Shown here: positions 28,855 to 34,721 of the stretch, in pieces | Layout: every line of letters begins with the position of its first letter | Numbering within the stretch: position 1 is the stretch's first letter | Position numbers and translations under genes: made by a program | Assembly: GCA_964583985.1 (NCBI GenBank) | Contig: CAZOYD010000023.1 | Span: forward strand, 1 to 48,326 | DNA: 48,326 nucleotides | Direction of reading: 5' to 3' | Source: an uncultured archaeon | GTDB taxonomy: Archaea > Asgardarchaeota > Lokiarchaeia > Sigyniarchaeales > SOKP01 | Notes under the pieces: model-generated | Database searches by the model: none | What the model was told of the DNA's origin: nothing | What the model saw: only the letters and a program-made list of their open reading frames with translations

Positions 28855-28905
28855 TGCACTAACACTAAAATTAAACAAAAAATAAGAATTGGGGTTACTT
28901 TTACG

Positions 28906-29274
28906 TTAGTAAATGAAAGTCATGAAGATTATCTGAAAGCGATCTATCTAATTTCAAGACATAAAAAGGGAGGGTGGGTGTCAAATTCGGAGATTTCCGA
29001 TTATTTAGGAATTAAACCCGCTTCCGTGTCTGGGATGCTACATAAATTAAAGGATAATGGTTTCATTATGTGGAAACCAAGAAGTTCTATAAGGTTAACT
29101 CAAAATGGAAAGAATGCTGCTACTCAGGTAATCAAAAATTATATAAAATTAAAAAAATTTTTCATAAGTATCCTTAAATTAGATGATAAAGATCTAATCG
29201 ATGCATTATGCTGTGGTATTGAGCATCACATTACACCTGAAGTGAGAAATTCCCTAGATAATTTATTAAACTAG
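28906..29274 (+). CDS. DtxR/MntR-family metal-dependent repressor (start uncertain, non-canonical)
   Basis: In-frame NESHEDYLKAIYLI lies upstream of the GTG at 28978; ISDYLGIKPASVSGMLHKL HTH, LTQNG and CGIEHHI. Confidence 0.85.
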   Translation, partial: LVNESHEDYLKAIYLISRHKKGGWVSNSEISDYLGIKPASVSGMLHKLKDNGFIMWKPRSSIRLTQNGKNAATQVIKNYIKLKKFFISILKLDDKDLIDALCCGIEHHITPEVRNSLDNLLN

Positions 29275-29384: not shown

Positions 29385-29681
29385 GTGAATGATATAAAAG
29401 AAGTGTCAGTTCTAATTTTAATTAAAGACGATCCCGAAAATGTTTGTGCAAAGTGTTGCAAAACGACACAAGTTATTGATAGAATGATGGAAGAAATAGC
29501 AGAATTTAAGGACAAAGTAAAGATTATATATATAGATACCAAATCAAAAGAAGATATTGATAAATTTAAAAATCTCGAAAGACCTGCAGTTATCATAAAT
29601 GATAAGGTGTTTTCTGAGGGACACATACCTATTATTAAAAAACTGAGCAGAGAATTATTCAAAATATTAAATTCAACTTAA
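29385..29681 (+). CDS. Small thioredoxin-like redox protein
   Basis: CAKC(C) motif; PAVIINDKVFSEGHIP resembles small redox-active disulfide proteins (Thioredoxin_3 type). Confidence 0.7.
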   Translation: MNDIKEVSVLILIKDDPENVCAKCCKTTQVIDRMMEEIAEFKDKVKIIYIDTKSKEDIDKFKNLERPAVIINDKVFSEGHIPIIKKLSRELFKILNST

Positions 29682-29741: not shown

Positions 29742-30653
29742 TTATTTACTTTTTTCGTCAAAATCAGTTAAATGTTTGAATCGTCCACCTAAAATATTTA
29801 CCATATCTGAGGGAACAATAATCCATGCGCCTTTTTCTTTCATTGATTCATATAAAATATTCATTGCACGTAAATTTAATGCAACTTCATCACTTTCGTA
29901 AATTTTAGCCGCATTTATGAATTTATTGGCAATTTGTTCTTCAGAACCGGCTAAAATTATCCGGGCTTGGCGTTCTCTTTCCGCTTGTGCTTGTCTGCTC
30001 ATTGCATCCTGTAATGCTGTAGGAATAATAACATCTCTAAGCTCAACAGCAATTGATTTTACACCCCATTCTTCCGTGCGTTCATCAATTATTCTTTCAA
30101 GTTCATGGGATATTTCTTCTCGCCCCACAAGCATTTGACTTAATTCTGTTTTTCCAATTATGTCCCGTAAAGAAGTTTGAGCTGCCCATGAAATCGCTGT
30201 CTGATAGTCTTGTACGTGGATAGATGCTTTAAACGCATCATTTACTTGCCAAAATAATACGGCATCTACATTAACGGGTACGTTATCTTTCGTTAAGGTC
30301 TGTTCGGCTGAAAAAGTAGTCGTTATAATTCTAATATCTAACGTGAAAGGTATTTTATATACAAATGGGAATAGCCAAAACATCCCTGGACCACGCATTT
30401 TTTTATATTTTCCCAATAATAATGTTGGAACCCGTATCCATTCGGGTAGGATATAAATTCCTGCCATTAAAAAGCCTAAGACTATTAAAATAATGACTAC
30501 TGTCAAAATTAAAATATTTATCGCAACTTGGAAAAATATATTTGCGATTACCATTCCAATTAAAACAATTAATCCAACAATAAAAAGAAAGTAGCCCACT
30601 CCACGTATTGAGTTTCCTCCTACTGAATATCGATTAAATTTATCTGACATCAT
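29742..30653 (-). CDS. SPFH/stomatin (slipin) membrane protein
   Basis: GPG, LTKDNVPVNVDAV, AQTSLRDIIG, WGVK..VEL and AMSRQAQAERERQA. Confidence 0.93.
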   Translation of the reverse strand: MMSDKFNRYSVGGNSIRGVGYFLFIVGLIVLIGMVIANIFFQVAINILILTVVIILIVLGFLMAGIYILPEWIRVPTLLLGKYKKMRGPGMFWLFPFVYKIPFTLDIRIITTTFSAEQTLTKDNVPVNVDAVLFWQVNDAFKASIHVQDYQTAISWAAQTSLRDIIGKTELSQMLVGREEISHELERIIDERTEEWGVKSIAVELRDVIIPTALQDAMSRQAQAERERQARIILAGSEEQIANKFINAAKIYESDEVALNLRAMNILYESMKEKGAWIIVPSDMVNILGGRFKHLTDFDEKSK

Positions 30654-30692
30654 AATTGTTTAAATGATTATCATCATTGTATAAAAATGTTT

Positions 30693-31793
30693 TTATAATA
30701 ATTTTAAACATTTTGCTAAACATCTATTAACACAGGCATTACAATTTATGCATTTTTCGAGATTTTTTAAATCAACCTTATTATCTTTATCATTAAATAC
30801 ATACAAATTCCTAGGGCATACTTCTATACACACCTTACATCCAATGCATTTTTCTCTCTCAATATTTATTTGTCCGTATGGTTGTAATGTATATTCACCA
30901 AACAGGAATTTCATTTTCTTTCCACCTTTCTTCCATGTCTTTTCACCTAATTCACTTTTATAGATGGGTGTTAAGCCATTAAAATCTTCTGCCATAATCG
31001 TAGTAATTAACAGAGAAAATGAAATATTCCATAGCAGATAGAAAAGATCAAAAATAATAAACAAATTAAATATAGTAATTAGTCCAAGAATTATCCCTTC
31101 ATAAATCCATACTTTTATTTTTCCTGTTCCTATGGGAATGCTTGGTAATAGTATCATTGACCCATAAATTATTATAACAAAAATCAAAAGTGTATCTAAA
31201 TAGAGTAATAGATTCAAAATTGGTAAAAAAATTGCAGTAATCCAATAGATAACTGAAATAAAAAGAATTAAGATAAAGAAATATAATGAAGCCATTTCTG
31301 CTCTGTGAGAGATAGGAAATCTTACTATTCTCTGTGCTTCTGACTTACTAAATTTTTGTTTTATAAAAGAAGGGATATCTTTAGCATATACGGGACCGAA
31401 CTTTATATCCCACTTTGTCTTTTTTTTAATAACGATTGGATCTATTCCGGGAGCGCTTAATTGGGGTATAATTAAAGTTCTATGAGAAACAAGATCATCG
31501 ATTCCGCTGGTTTTTATAATTGATAGGACAGAATCCGTATTAAAATCATCTCCGCACGCTCCACACCATACATTGATTCCTTTAGATGGAGCAACCAATA
31601 AATAACAGTCGAGATTCTTTATTGCTTTTAAAACTCGTTTTACTGTTAAATTAAAATTGCATGTTAGTAATACAGGACTTTCATTTGTAGGGTTTCCAAT
31701 TTTAATGAGGGTTGGTTCAACAGGAAAACCCGTCCATCTTAGAAAAAATCCGAGGAATAATTTTATTGACTCTTTTATACTCATTTTTCTCAT
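30693..31793 (-). CDS. Fused HgcAB-like protein: corrinoid-binding CdhD/HgcA-type domain, TM helices and 2x[4Fe-4S]
   Basis: IGNPTNESPVLLTCNFNLT, cap-helix GINVWCGACG, LIIPQLSAPG, FGPVYAKDIP, about 4 TM segments, CIGCKVCIEVCP and CINCNACVNRC. Confidence 0.88.
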   Translation of the reverse strand: MRKMSIKESIKLFLGFFLRWTGFPVEPTLIKIGNPTNESPVLLTCNFNLTVKRVLKAIKNLDCYLLVAPSKGINVWCGACGDDFNTDSVLSIIKTSGIDDLVSHRTLIIPQLSAPGIDPIVIKKKTKWDIKFGPVYAKDIPSFIKQKFSKSEAQRIVRFPISHRAEMASLYFFILILFISVIYWITAIFLPILNLLLYLDTLLIFVIIIYGSMILLPSIPIGTGKIKVWIYEGIILGLITIFNLFIIFDLFYLLWNISFSLLITTIMAEDFNGLTPIYKSELGEKTWKKGGKKMKFLFGEYTLQPYGQINIEREKCIGCKVCIEVCPRNLYVFNDKDNKVDLKNLEKCINCNACVNRCLAKCLKLL

Positions 31794-31817
31794 ATTTAAT
31801 AGTAATTATTATAACCT

Positions 31818-32480
31818 TTAGGATTGTTTTTTTTTCAACCTAAATAACTTTAAAGTATCTAATAAATAATATTTTTCTTCAATCAAAGAAAAATTATTAC
31901 TTTCAAGTCGTATTTCTATATTTCTCAATGATTTAGTGGTCAATTGGGACTTAAAATATGTGATAATTATCAAGGGAGTTCTTATGAAGAAATAAACAAT
32001 TTTTTTCCAAATTTTTTTAGGTTTCACCTCATCAACCAAAATAAATTCTCCATTATCTTTTAATATTCTATTGATTTGCTTTAAACAAAAATCCTGCTCT
32101 TCCCCATAAAATTCACTAAAAGATAAAATGGCGATAATTTTATCAAATGACTTATCCGAAAATTTTTCATCTAATTCTATAACTGGCATTTTAATAACTT
32201 GAATACTCTTAGTTAATCCTTCTAATTCAATTTTTTTTTTAGCAACTTCAAGCATTTTTTCCGAATTATCAATACCGGTAACTATTACTCCTTTTTTACC
32301 ACATAGAATAGCGAAGGTTCCTGTACCCATACCGATATCTAAAATTGTTTCCTTTTTATTTATTAAGTTATCAACAATATACTTGTTGATTTTAAGTAAG
32401 CGTCCTAATGTCAAATTCTTCATTCCCTTGTCGTATCTTTCTGCCTTCTTTTCCAATGCTTTCATATAAACATAAGACAT
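31818..32480 (-). CDS. Class I SAM-dependent methyltransferase (corrinoid-protein-associated, CpaM-like)
   Basis: ILDIGMGTG, GIDNSEKML, SFDKI and LKDNGEFILVDE; N-terminus MSYVYMKALE...YDKG...LTLG; 24 bp upstream of the HgcAB-like gene. Confidence 0.85.
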   Translation of the reverse strand: MSYVYMKALEKKAERYDKGMKNLTLGRLLKINKYIVDNLINKKETILDIGMGTGTFAILCGKKGVIVTGIDNSEKMLEVAKKKIELEGLTKSIQVIKMPVIELDEKFSDKSFDKIIAILSFSEFYGEEQDFCLKQINRILKDNGEFILVDEVKPKKIWKKIVYFFIRTPLIIITYFKSQLTTKSLRNIEIRLESNNFSLIEEKYYLLDTLKLFRLKKKQS

Positions 32481-32589: not shown

Positions 32590-32895
32590 TTAATTTTTTT
32601 TGATTTCATTCTCTTTTTCTTTTTTTAATTCCTTTAACTTCTGCTTCAACGCTTTTTTTTTATTCTTGGTTAAAATCGAAATCTCTTTATTAAATATTTT
32701 TAAAATATATTTTAATTCAGAGATTCTCCCGTTTAAATCTCTTTTTTCCTTCTTAATAGAACCCATATCTCGATAATCTTGTTCATATTTAGAATAGATT
32801 TCATTGAGAACTGTATCGAATTCGATTGAAATTTTTTTTTGAATTTCAGCTTCCTTTTCCTTATATTTTTCTTCGATTTCATTCAAATTTGTCAT
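32590..32895 (-). CDS. Small charged coiled-coil protein
   Basis: 101-aa K/E-rich ORF with an ATG start. Confidence 0.55.
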   Translation of the reverse strand: MTNLNEIEEKYKEKEAEIQKKISIEFDTVLNEIYSKYEQDYRDMGSIKKEKRDLNGRISELKYILKIFNKEISILTKNKKKALKQKLKELKKEKENEIKKN

Positions 32896-33062: not shown

Positions 33063-34721
33063 CTACAACCACTTTATTACGTAAAGTGGCCACTTTTTTA
33101 AAACACCTTTAGGGTATTTCCCACTTCTGACCTTATCTAGCATTTCTGACCGAATTTTCAAGAAATCCACTGGATCTTCTTCAATCAATTGAATTCCTAT
33201 CCCACCATCTAAAATACACTTTCTAAAATTATCATTCTTGACACAATTCAACAAAATTTCTTTAAAATTCTTTCGATTGATACATTCTGCTCCATAATTT
33301 GAATTCAATATTATCTTCCAGCTTTCATCTATACCCTTTTTGGGAGATACTAATAAAAGCAGATCAATATTTGATTTACTTTCAATCCCTAAGCATTTTA
33401 TTAACATGCGAGGATCTAAAATTTCAAAGGTATTAAAATTAAAGTAGTCACCGGCATAAACCGTATATCCTTTTTTTAAATGTAAATTTTCAGAGATTTT
33501 TATTGGATATTTTAATTGAAATTCTGAACGCAAAATTTTACCGTTAATTTGAGGGAGAGCTTGTTGATTTACTAATTGGATAACATCCCCAATATCTAAA
33601 TTGATAAATACTTTAGTATCATCAAATCGAGATATTAGAAGCTTTCCAAATTTACTGTTACTATCGGAAATTAATTGTTTTTTTCCTTTATATTCTAGTA
33701 CTGGTAAAGTTAAAGGAAATACGGTAAGAATATCTTTTTGTGAAATACCCTTAAGATCCTTATTTATTGTTGCTGCAAATGGTCCTGTCTCAGATGATAC
33801 ATATAAATTAGTAAATTTTTCTTCTCCTTTTTCCCATTTCATAAATTGACGGATTAAATCCCAATCTCTTGAAGATAATGAACTTATACTAAAAATGAGA
33901 ACTGCTTTTGATAATTTATTAGAAAGCAACTCCTGTATTTCTTTTGCGGCAGTTGTAACACCCTTTTTTTTAACTTTTAAGAGAAGTTTTTCTAACATCG
34001 GGTCAGGTTCAGGATCAACATCATTGAGGGATTTTTGTAACCCTATTTGGAATTTTTCTATATCTGCCCAACCAAGGATTGTAATTGCTGGAGCGGAAAT
34101 TACAGAGATATCATTTAATGATAATATTTTTGCGATGATGTTGAGATTTTTTGAAAATTTATATTCGAAAAGAGTATAATTCGAAGGTTTCATTATTGCT
34201 AACATTAATCTCTGGGAGAATTCGGAAGAATATAGTGAGATAAAATTGGTATTTTCTGTATTATTTAATCCATCGATATCAAGCCTTGAAGGGATAAAAA
34301 TTATTGCCGAGGATTTAGAATCCAATCCGCTCGATTCAAAAATTGCTTGCATTCCTGGTGCCCAATATAGTTTTACATTCTTTTTTGACATATGTAGCCA
34401 TTTTAGCGAATTTATATCATTATTTGTAGTGCCTGAACTATGACATACAATTAAGGGTTCGGAACCATGAAAATTTGCGAGATAATCATTAAGATCGATA
34501 GAAATTTTTTTAGAATCAGTTTTTTCTCTTTCTATTCTTTCAAAAATATCGGTTACTATAGCTAATCCTGAATTTTTTAAAATATAATCAATATAATCTT
34601 CTTTTGATGAGATATCTAACCATTTTTTCCAATTGGTAGGTTGAATTTCAGAAAATATTTTATTAAAAAGCAATTGAACCTTGGGATCAAAATCGTTTGA
34701 TATCAATCTATTATCTTTCAC
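33063..34721 (-). CDS. Divergent adenylate-forming enzyme (GH3 / phenylacetate-CoA ligase-like)
   Basis: P-loop HSSGTT...LK, NLYVSSETG and LDIGDVI correspond to the ANL/GH3 core motifs. Confidence 0.6.
   Translation of the reverse strand: MKDNRLISNDFDPKVQLLFNKIFSEIQPTNWKKWLDISSKEDYIDYILKNSGLAIVTDIFERIEREKTDSKKISIDLNDYLANFHGSEPLIVCHSSGTTNNDINSLKWLHMSKKNVKLYWAPGMQAIFESSGLDSKSSAIIFIPSRLDIDGLNNTENTNFISLYSSEFSQRLMLAIMKPSNYTLFEYKFSKNLNIIAKILSLNDISVISAPAITILGWADIEKFQIGLQKSLNDVDPEPDPMLEKLLLKVKKKGVTTAAKEIQELLSNKLSKAVLIFSISSLSSRDWDLIRQFMKWEKGEEKFTNLYVSSETGPFAATINKDLKGISQKDILTVFPLTLPVLEYKGKKQLISDSNSKFGKLLISRFDDTKVFINLDIGDVIQLVNQQALPQINGKILRSEFQLKYPIKISENLHLKKGYTVYAGDYFNFNTFEILDPRMLIKCLGIESKSNIDLLLLVSPKKGIDESWKIILNSNYGAECINRKNFKEILLNCVKNDNFRKCILDGGIGIQLIEEDPVDFLKIRSEMLDKVRSGKYPKGVLKKWPLYVIKWL

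Follow-up and report, generated by a model that had tools for sequence, protein, structure and literature searches.

What HgcA-type corrinoid proteins natively do, and why they evolved, is an open question in mercury biogeochemistry. We analyzed a stretch of 48,326 nucleotides from an uncultured archaeon of the Lokiarchaeia (GCA_964583985.1, contig CAZOYD010000023.1; the whole stretch is called the window below), in which a relative of these proteins is encoded. The gene for this HgcAB-like fusion protein (P0002) is flanked by genes for a class I S-adenosylmethionine (SAM)-dependent methyltransferase (P0001) and an SPFH/stomatin-like membrane protein (P0003). A preliminary description had read the three genes as a candidate new methylation system. 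The locus thus raises the question of which of these genes belong together, and what chemistry they might perform. The explanation we favor, and consider moderately probable, is a two-gene methyl-relay module formed by the methyltransferase, CpaM, and the HgcAB-like protein, with an unrelated SPFH gene downstream.

The CpaM and fusion protein pair

All three open reading frames (ORFs) were found co-oriented on the minus strand, with intergenic gaps of 24 and 39 bp and at the coordinates given in the preliminary description. Their description as a methyltransferase, a corrinoid/transmembrane/ferredoxin protein and an SPFH protein was confirmed by the ORFs, by Pfam and by an AlphaFold2 (AF2) model. 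Each of them is a strong family match, and chance ORFs are excluded. P0001 matched the class I SAM methyltransferases in Pfam (Methyltransf_11/25/31, E 1e-16 to 1e-17) and passed NF043040 (242.1 bits, cut-off 180; profile positions 1-215 of 216), which in NCBIfam stands for the "corrinoid protein-associated methyltransferase" CpaM, a hypothetical equivalog. P0002 passed NF043039, the HgcAB-like fusion protein (371.5 bits, cut-off 285; profile positions 2-349 of 350). The closest relatives by tblastn were found in metagenome-assembled genomes of Promethearchaeota (76-83% identity), and a homologue with 58% identity is present in the cultured Promethearchaeum syntrophicum MK-D1, which agrees with a Lokiarchaeia-type Asgard origin of the window.

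For the analysis of gene neighborhoods, 105 related loci from many bacterial and archaeal phyla were gathered, 31 with the protein itself and 78 with the family alignment, the two sets partly overlapping. In the 17 canonical loci among them, hgcA is unfused and followed by a separate hgcB, and none of the 17 contained a CpaM homologue. The fusion-type loci had a CpaM homologue (87-377 bits) immediately upstream and on the same strand, in many cases overlapping by 4 bp, or as part of one reading frame with the fusion gene. Here, cpaM sits 24 bp upstream of the fusion gene, likewise on the same strand.

From a 99-row, 162-column alignment of the corrinoid domain, a maximum likelihood tree was calculated with no CdhD/E outgroup; it is therefore unrooted. 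A branch with a Shimodaira-Hasegawa-like approximate likelihood ratio test (SH-aLRT) value of 100 divided an 81-row CpaM-associated clade from the 17 canonical HgcA rows and one long-branched sequence, L098. P0002 was placed inside a 33-row Asgard clade (SH-aLRT 98), which itself lies within the CpaM-associated clade; Lin et al. reportedly found the Asgard members of the fused HgcAB type in a subclade of their own. The phylogeny proposed in the preliminary description, covering HgcA and fused HgcAB, separated P0002 from HgcA and placed it within the fused clade.

In 78 of the 81 clade rows, CpaM was a neighbor of the fusion gene or part of it, with 68 adjacent genes (two of them at a distance of 1-1.8 kb) and 10 in-frame fusions. 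According to the tree, the in-frame joining had at least three origins. Single chains of 582-644 aa exceeded both curated cut-offs and are natural CpaM-HgcA-HgcB proteins. A search of 300 Asgard genomes gave the same picture: the fusion model matched in 137 (E <= 1e-40) and the CpaM model in 138 (E <= 1e-30), with both present in about 135 genomes, only the fusion in 2, only CpaM in 3 and neither in 160. The paired matches lay on adjacent coordinates. Hence, the pairing of CpaM with the fusion protein is near-obligatory, and the co-occurrence check suggested in the preliminary description came out clearly in favor of a methyltransferase/corrinoid protein pair. The pair is co-conserved in Bacteria and Archaea and forms one chain in several lineages; the complex prediction described below adds weak support.

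The third gene behaved differently. P0003 belongs to the SPFH/Band 7 family (PF01145, 116 bits, E 2e-33), and a stomatin that scaffolds the membrane-bound corrinoid protein could be imagined, given the same orientation and a distance of just 39 bp. However, neither phmmer nor tblastn detected a P0003 homologue in the 105 related loci, even in those of relatives with 80-87% identity. In two loci (L035 and L019), a thioredoxin-like gene on the opposite strand is the next matched gene after the fusion gene, 62 and 397 bp downstream. The window contains its own thioredoxin-like gene at 29385-29681 (+), and here the SPFH gene intervenes between it and the fusion gene. A T-run and a TATA-like stretch within the 39-bp gap also speak against such a scaffold. 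We therefore regard a three-gene system with an SPFH scaffold as barely conceivable. The SPFH gene is a chance local neighbor rather than a component of the module, and was rejected as a third component; the stomatin link, which gave the locus its three-gene appearance, is not real.

Clustering of the flanking ORFs of the 105 loci yielded lineage-specific neighbors only, namely ArsR and the combination of TetR, an ABC-2 exporter and HlyD; in Asgard loci, these neighbors were a PF04075-like protein and a membrane methyltransferase similar to PEMT/ICMT. A conserved wider operon that would point to the substrate was considered and rejected, as there is no universal third gene. In Chloroflexota (L052, L054, and L055), the module is embedded in a block of genes for a TetR regulator, ABC-2 permeases, an ABC ATPase and HlyD, and several other bacteria (L060, L079, and L082) encode an ArsR-family regulator directly upstream. 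Such lineage-specific surroundings hint at export or detoxification.

Three further arrangements were observed. Other Asgard genomes of the same genus and family contain a second, paralogous class (e.g., G076:C22:18703-20241), a single ORF of ~550-600 aa in which an N-terminus resembling CpaM, at ~140 bits below the cut-off, is joined to an HgcA-like domain (~180 bits), and in which the match to the fusion model stops before the ferredoxin part. This form replaces or accompanies the two-gene form in many genomes of the genus; the genome of the window has the two-gene form only. In a Promethearchaeum sp. (L120, G005:C130:14910-15524), the genome has, besides the standard pair, a 564-aa open frame with another CpaM-like domain, which scored below the cut-off (138 bits) and probably belongs to this paralogous single-chain class. 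Finally, the thorarchaeotal L098 (L098:5233-6969, CP070761.1) encodes a protein of 578 aa with a different class I methyltransferase domain (39 bits to CpaM) and an HgcA-like domain with the cap helix NVWCAARG. In the tree, it falls on the side of canonical HgcA with a very long branch, and it may be an independent methyltransferase-HgcA fusion.

Table 1. Features of the locus, with positions in the window and the basis of each assignment
Feature	Position	Strand	Basis
cpaM (P0001), class I SAM-dependent methyltransferase, 220 aa	31818..32480	-	NF043040, SAM motifs, AF2
HgcAB-like fusion protein (P0002), 366 aa: corrinoid domain, four transmembrane helices, 2x[4Fe-4S]	30693..31793	-	NF043039, Pfam, AF2
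Corrinoid-binding domain, residues 19-160	31314..31739	-	PF03599 CdhD (25-142), Foldseek
Cap helix N74-V-W-C77-G-A-C80-G81	31551..31574	-	Alignment of 60 family members
Four transmembrane helices, residues 161-269	30987..31313	-	AF2, hydropathy
HgcB-like 2x[4Fe-4S] ferredoxin domain, residues 301-366	30696..30893	-	Fer4 families, cluster Cys
SPFH/stomatin-like membrane protein (P0003), 303 aa, outside the module	29742..30653	-	PF01145, 116 bits

Fusion protein architecture and mercury-handling residues

P0002 combines, on a single chain, a CdhD-type corrinoid domain (PF03599, E 2e-16), transmembrane helices and a 2x[4Fe-4S] dicluster domain (Pfam, residues 309-364), and this architecture is that of the NF043039 type. 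The AF2 model, built with a 60-sequence alignment, had a predicted local distance difference test (pLDDT) score of 94.2. It placed the cap helix at residues 75-80 and the transmembrane helices at 161-189, 195-218, 224-247, and 250-269, between the corrinoid and ferredoxin domains. By hydropathy and the positive-inside rule, both soluble domains are predicted to be cytoplasmic, so that the ferredoxin domain can reach the corrinoid. All eight cluster cysteines are present (316/319/322/326 and 348/351/354/358), along with an additional C362.

Among the 60 family members, 41 of 142 columns in the corrinoid domain were conserved to at least 90%, compared to 1 of 109 in the transmembrane region. Because conservation is concentrated in the corrinoid domain, the alignment suggests that the transmembrane region is an anchor and not a conserved channel. 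A conserved D270/G273/P276 motif follows directly after the last transmembrane helix.

Foldseek ranked a computed HgcAB model from 2020 first, followed by the corrinoid iron-sulfur protein (CFeSP) large subunit. The corrinoid domain superposed on the CFeSP large subunit (2ycl, 4djd, and 2h9a) with root-mean-square deviations of 1.5-2.1 A over ~128 residues. A sequence search found no experimental HgcA structure. On contig C102 (L002:463-1722), the genome has a gene for a true CFeSP gamma subunit of carbon monoxide dehydrogenase/acetyl-CoA synthase, truncated by the contig end, with matches to PF03599 (275 bits) and the FeS domain PF04060. The organism hence uses corrinoids in the Wood-Ljungdahl pathway too. 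As this subunit is the sole other PF03599 match, a second HgcA-like gene in the genome was rejected.

The residues N74, V75, W76, and C77 were invariant in 60 of 60 family members. The cap helix of P0002 reads NVWCGACGD; position 82 is G or D in the family, but Lys in canonical HgcA. Whereas the 17 canonical loci showed NVWCAAGK in 15 cases, NVWCAAGH in one and NVWCDAGK in one, the fusion-type loci followed the Lys-free pattern NVWC[GAS][AST]x[GD]. Canonical HgcB (16 aligned sequences) mostly carries a GVGC motif, which contains the Cys73 equivalent, and a Cys-rich tail, most ending in CC. The chain of P0002 ends 8 residues past the last cluster Cys, and thus lacks both the GVGC Cys73 equivalent and the C-terminal Cys pair. 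The NVWCGACG cap helix and the missing Cys pair had both been recognized in the preliminary description, and sequence and alignment agreed with it.

These differences bear on whether the module could be a functional mercury methylase, that is, a fused form of HgcAB. Homology to HgcA and HgcB and the retained invariant Cys of the NVWC cap helix would fit such a role. Like the canonical proteins, the fusion protein has homologous corrinoid and ferredoxin domains, the invariant cap-helix Cys as predicted cobalt ligand and a membrane anchor, and SAM is the likely methyl source in both. However, P0002 is a single chain with four transmembrane helices, and its scores fell below the equivalog cut-offs for HgcA (NF040863, 167.5 bits vs. 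275) and HgcB (NF040864, 43 bits vs. 99). Its cap helix lacks the AAGK/AGGK ending, its clade is split from canonical HgcA by the SH-aLRT 100 branch, and it has the obligatory CpaM partner that is absent from all 17 canonical loci. Equivalents of Cys73 and Cys94/95 of HgcB, described as critical for mercury methylation in PMC11588087, which cites Smith 2015 for this point, are missing. In addition, the fused hgcAB of P. furiosus was negative for mercury methylation, as 10.1101/2022.11.21.517362 relates from Podar 2015. Mercury methylation by this module is therefore extremely improbable, in agreement with the preliminary description, which had set it apart from the canonical mercury methylases.

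Residue C80 forms a CxxC motif with the invariant C77. It was found in 40 of the 60 members, comprising all Asgard relatives of the P0002 type and a few others; the alternatives were G, T, A, L, and R in this alignment, and E, S, V, and D in further loci. The proposal that this extra cap-helix Cys sets the specificity did not hold for the family as a whole: judged from the alignment, C80 is a clade trait and does not define the family, and was rejected as a family-wide specificity determinant. C80 and C362 occurred together in 37 of 60 sequences, and about a third of the family lacks both. On the tree, only three independent contrasts were available for a coupling of the two residues, one concordant and two uninformative, which gives no support. 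Functional coupling was rejected, since shared ancestry explains the co-occurrence.

The two cysteines are the starting point for another explanation, a detoxifying methylase for metals or metalloids (As, Sb, Se, Te, and Bi), in which a Cys-ligated methylcobamide would pass a methyl carbanion or radical to the soft metal(loid) and, in the clade of P0002, the CxxC (C77/C80) and C362 would bind it. HgcA is a chemical precedent, the joint presence of C80 and C362 in the 37 sequences would suit a binding site, and the regulator and exporter genes next to the pair (ArsR in some bacteria; TetR, ABC-2 exporter and HlyD in Chloroflexota) are in line with this role. Such contexts are a minority of the loci, though, and neither the third of the family without C80 and C362 nor their co-occurrence by shared ancestry fits well. 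Furthermore, none of the window neighbors scanned was identified as a gene for arsenic or metal resistance. We consider a detoxifying methylase decidedly unlikely. There is a slim chance that, in the Asgard clade specifically, C77/C80 and C362 form a soft metal(loid) site beside the cobalt and that the module is a SAM-fuelled, B12-dependent metal(loid) methylase.

Proposed methyl flow from SAM to the acceptor

In P0001, SAM motif I (LDIGMGTG) is intact, and the family-invariant residues D71 and E151 of the 40-sequence CpaM alignment are present. A conserved insert at 154-185 (P154, R167, P169, T174, and T182) forms a long amphipathic helix. The same alignment contained no conserved Cys, and CpaM consequently has no ArsM-like metal site. 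No transmembrane segment was found in P0001. The AF2 model (pLDDT 91.8) had yeast Coq5 (4obw, TM-score 0.78) as its top structural match, and the top sequence family other than CpaM was UbiE/MenG (TIGR01934, 66 bits, cut-off 158). CpaM is predicted to bind SAM and to transfer the methyl group to the corrinoid.

The favored methyl relay would operate as follows. Soluble CpaM would bind SAM and dock on the membrane-anchored fusion protein at its corrinoid domain, in the cytoplasm. It would then methylate the cob(I)amide, the lower axial ligand of which would be the invariant cap-helix Cys77. Low-potential electrons for the reduction of Co(II) to Co(I) may come from the C-terminal 2x[4Fe-4S] domain, which is predicted to share this side of the membrane. 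The methyl group bound to Co(III) would finally be passed to an acceptor other than Hg(II) delivered in the manner of HgcB, probably an electrophilic or membrane-proximal one. Gene identities, architecture, pairing, natural fusions and the missing mercury-handling residues were observed directly; the direction of methyl flow, the loader role of CpaM and the kind of acceptor are inferred. In purified canonical HgcAB, SAM is the methyl donor and methylcob(III)alamin, its cobalt ligated by a Cys sulfur, the intermediate (PMC11588087), which makes the SAM route credible for the module as well. SAM as the methyl source, put forward in the preliminary description, is therefore plausible by analogy.

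The proposed division of labor resembles that of the CFeSP large subunit (AcsC/CdhE) and its methyltransferase MeTr, where the corrinoid domain is superposable, Co(I) receives its methyl group from a separate methyltransferase, and re-reduction of the cobalt falls to an Fe-S centre. In contrast, CFeSP is soluble and receives the methyl group from methyl-tetrahydrofolate via the TIM-barrel MeTr, whereas the protein studied here is membrane-anchored, has a Rossmann-fold SAM enzyme as partner, and belongs to the HgcA-type proteins, in which the cap-helix Cys ligates the cobalt.

Contact between the two proteins was addressed by complex prediction of P0001 and P0002 with SAM, which gave a median score of 0.50, the best control reaching 0.00. 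In the calibration, 58 of 80 solved complexes attained 0.50, as did 2 of 110 mismatched pairs, but only 7 of the 80 solved complexes passed with scores up to 0.60, together with both of the passing mismatches. The runs shared at least 43% of contacts, with a partner pLDDT of at least 78. The model thus gives weak support to a contact between CpaM and the fusion protein.

This weakness is one of several points that weigh against the methyl relay. Cobamide binding by the fusion protein is a prediction from homology alone (fold and conserved Cys ligand). Three fusion-type loci (L063, L071, and L079) have no adjacent CpaM; the L071 genome encodes one elsewhere, but the L063 and L079 genomes contain none above the cut-off. 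Biochemistry for either family, CpaM or the HgcAB-like fusion, was not found in the literature searched. Canonical HgcAB methylates its cobalamin from SAM without CpaM (PMC11588087), so that a separate loader is not chemically required. The nearest fold and sequence relatives of CpaM, the UbiE/Coq5 C-methyltransferases, directly methylate small membrane substrates, and CpaM could for this reason be a terminal enzyme rather than a loader.

The last two points, and mainly the dispensable loader, argue for sequential action, with CpaM working on a substrate of its own. CpaM would then be a UbiE/Coq5-like terminal methyltransferase for a lipophilic or small-molecule substrate, and the corrinoid/ferredoxin protein would act on that substrate in a cobalamin-dependent step of its own, such as a reductive or radical reaction, or a further methylation at a position that is not activated. 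CpaM shares with UbiE/MenG/Coq5 the N-terminal YD-containing helix and the Rossmann core, and its conserved amphipathic helix (157-178) could face the membrane. However, it scored far below the UbiE/MenG cut-off, has its own insert (154-185) and is tied to a corrinoid protein instead of quinone biosynthesis genes. The repeated in-frame fusion onto the corrinoid domain and the near-obligatory adjacency are better explained by direct hand-over. In addition, the flanking genes vary by lineage, so no shared pathway is visible, and the identified neighbors in the window are mainly housekeeping or unrelated genes. On balance, we judge sequential action to be fairly unlikely.

The association with CpaM also bears on a halomethane-directed or reductive-dehalogenase-like role, in which Co(I) would attack halomethanes. 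The module shares the corrinoid and ferredoxin set-up with HgcAB, and a preprint (10.64898/2026.04.26.720869) describes CCl4 dechlorination by heterologously expressed HgcAB. The HgcAB of that preprint is the canonical form and not a member of the fused clade, and dehalogenation would leave the obligatory SAM methyltransferase partner, fused in several lineages, unexplained. Such a role is very improbable.

Local context and place within the fused HgcAB clade

The window has a G+C content of ~30%. TATA-like and oligo-T stretches are present at the locus, but at ~27-30% G+C they cannot be separated from the background, and for this reason we do not claim transcription units. Apart from the thioredoxin-like gene and a recurring ORF of 101 aa, the neighbors identified in the window are housekeeping or unrelated genes.

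The 101-aa ORF (32590-32895, -) is Lys/Glu-rich, belongs to no Pfam family and is located just upstream of cpaM. Close homologues (123-132 bits) were found within a few kb of the module in five other Asgard loci, on the opposite side and strand. Another ORF, of 552 aa (33063-34721, -), has no Pfam family and no homologue in the 105 related loci. Beyond the thioredoxin-like gene, a DtxR/MntR-type iron-dependent repressor is encoded at 28855-29274 (+). The first in-frame ATG/GTG/TTG (28978) comes only after the conserved N-terminus, HEDYLKAIY, and upstream of it the open frame has no canonical start codon as far as the previous stop. The gene may have a non-canonical start or be split, or the sequence may contain a sequencing error.

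Compared to the fused HgcAB clade (NF043039; Podar 2015, Gilmour 2018, Lin 2023), P0002 has the same architecture, the NVWC core without Lys and a position in the same clade. Nothing substantial differs; P0002 and its Asgard relatives merely add C80 and C362. Likewise, P0001 exceeded the CpaM cut-off over its full length, and its gene immediately precedes the fusion gene, an arrangement shared by almost all relatives. It deviates from the usual CpaM in motif I (GMGTG instead of GCGTG) and in the 24-bp gap, where many relatives have the 4-bp overlap.

With respect to novelty, NCBIfam already curates CpaM and the HgcAB-like fusion protein as partners, and GenBank records of relatives bear the name "HgcAB-like fusion protein". 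The name CpaM was not found in the literature searched, outside of which Haft & Gwadz 2023 (PMC9879109) lay, and the papers on fused hgcAB within it leave the methyltransferase partner unmentioned. The locus is an ordinary additional copy of a catalogued, biochemically uncharacterized pair, and no new principle emerges from it. The observations of the preliminary description stand and its interpretation is supported in part, except for the stomatin link, the specificity assigned to the extra Cys and the claim of a new system.

If the module of the Asgard clade were a metal(loid) methylase, it would be mechanistically unlike ArsM and HgcAB, and would supply the native function that has long been sought for the fused HgcAB clade. 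This clade is the sister of the mercury methylases and occurs, in some form, in ~45% of the 300 Asgard genomes sampled and in many bacterial phyla. While canonical HgcAB uses SAM without such a partner enzyme, the fused clade is tied nearly always to a dedicated SAM methyltransferase.

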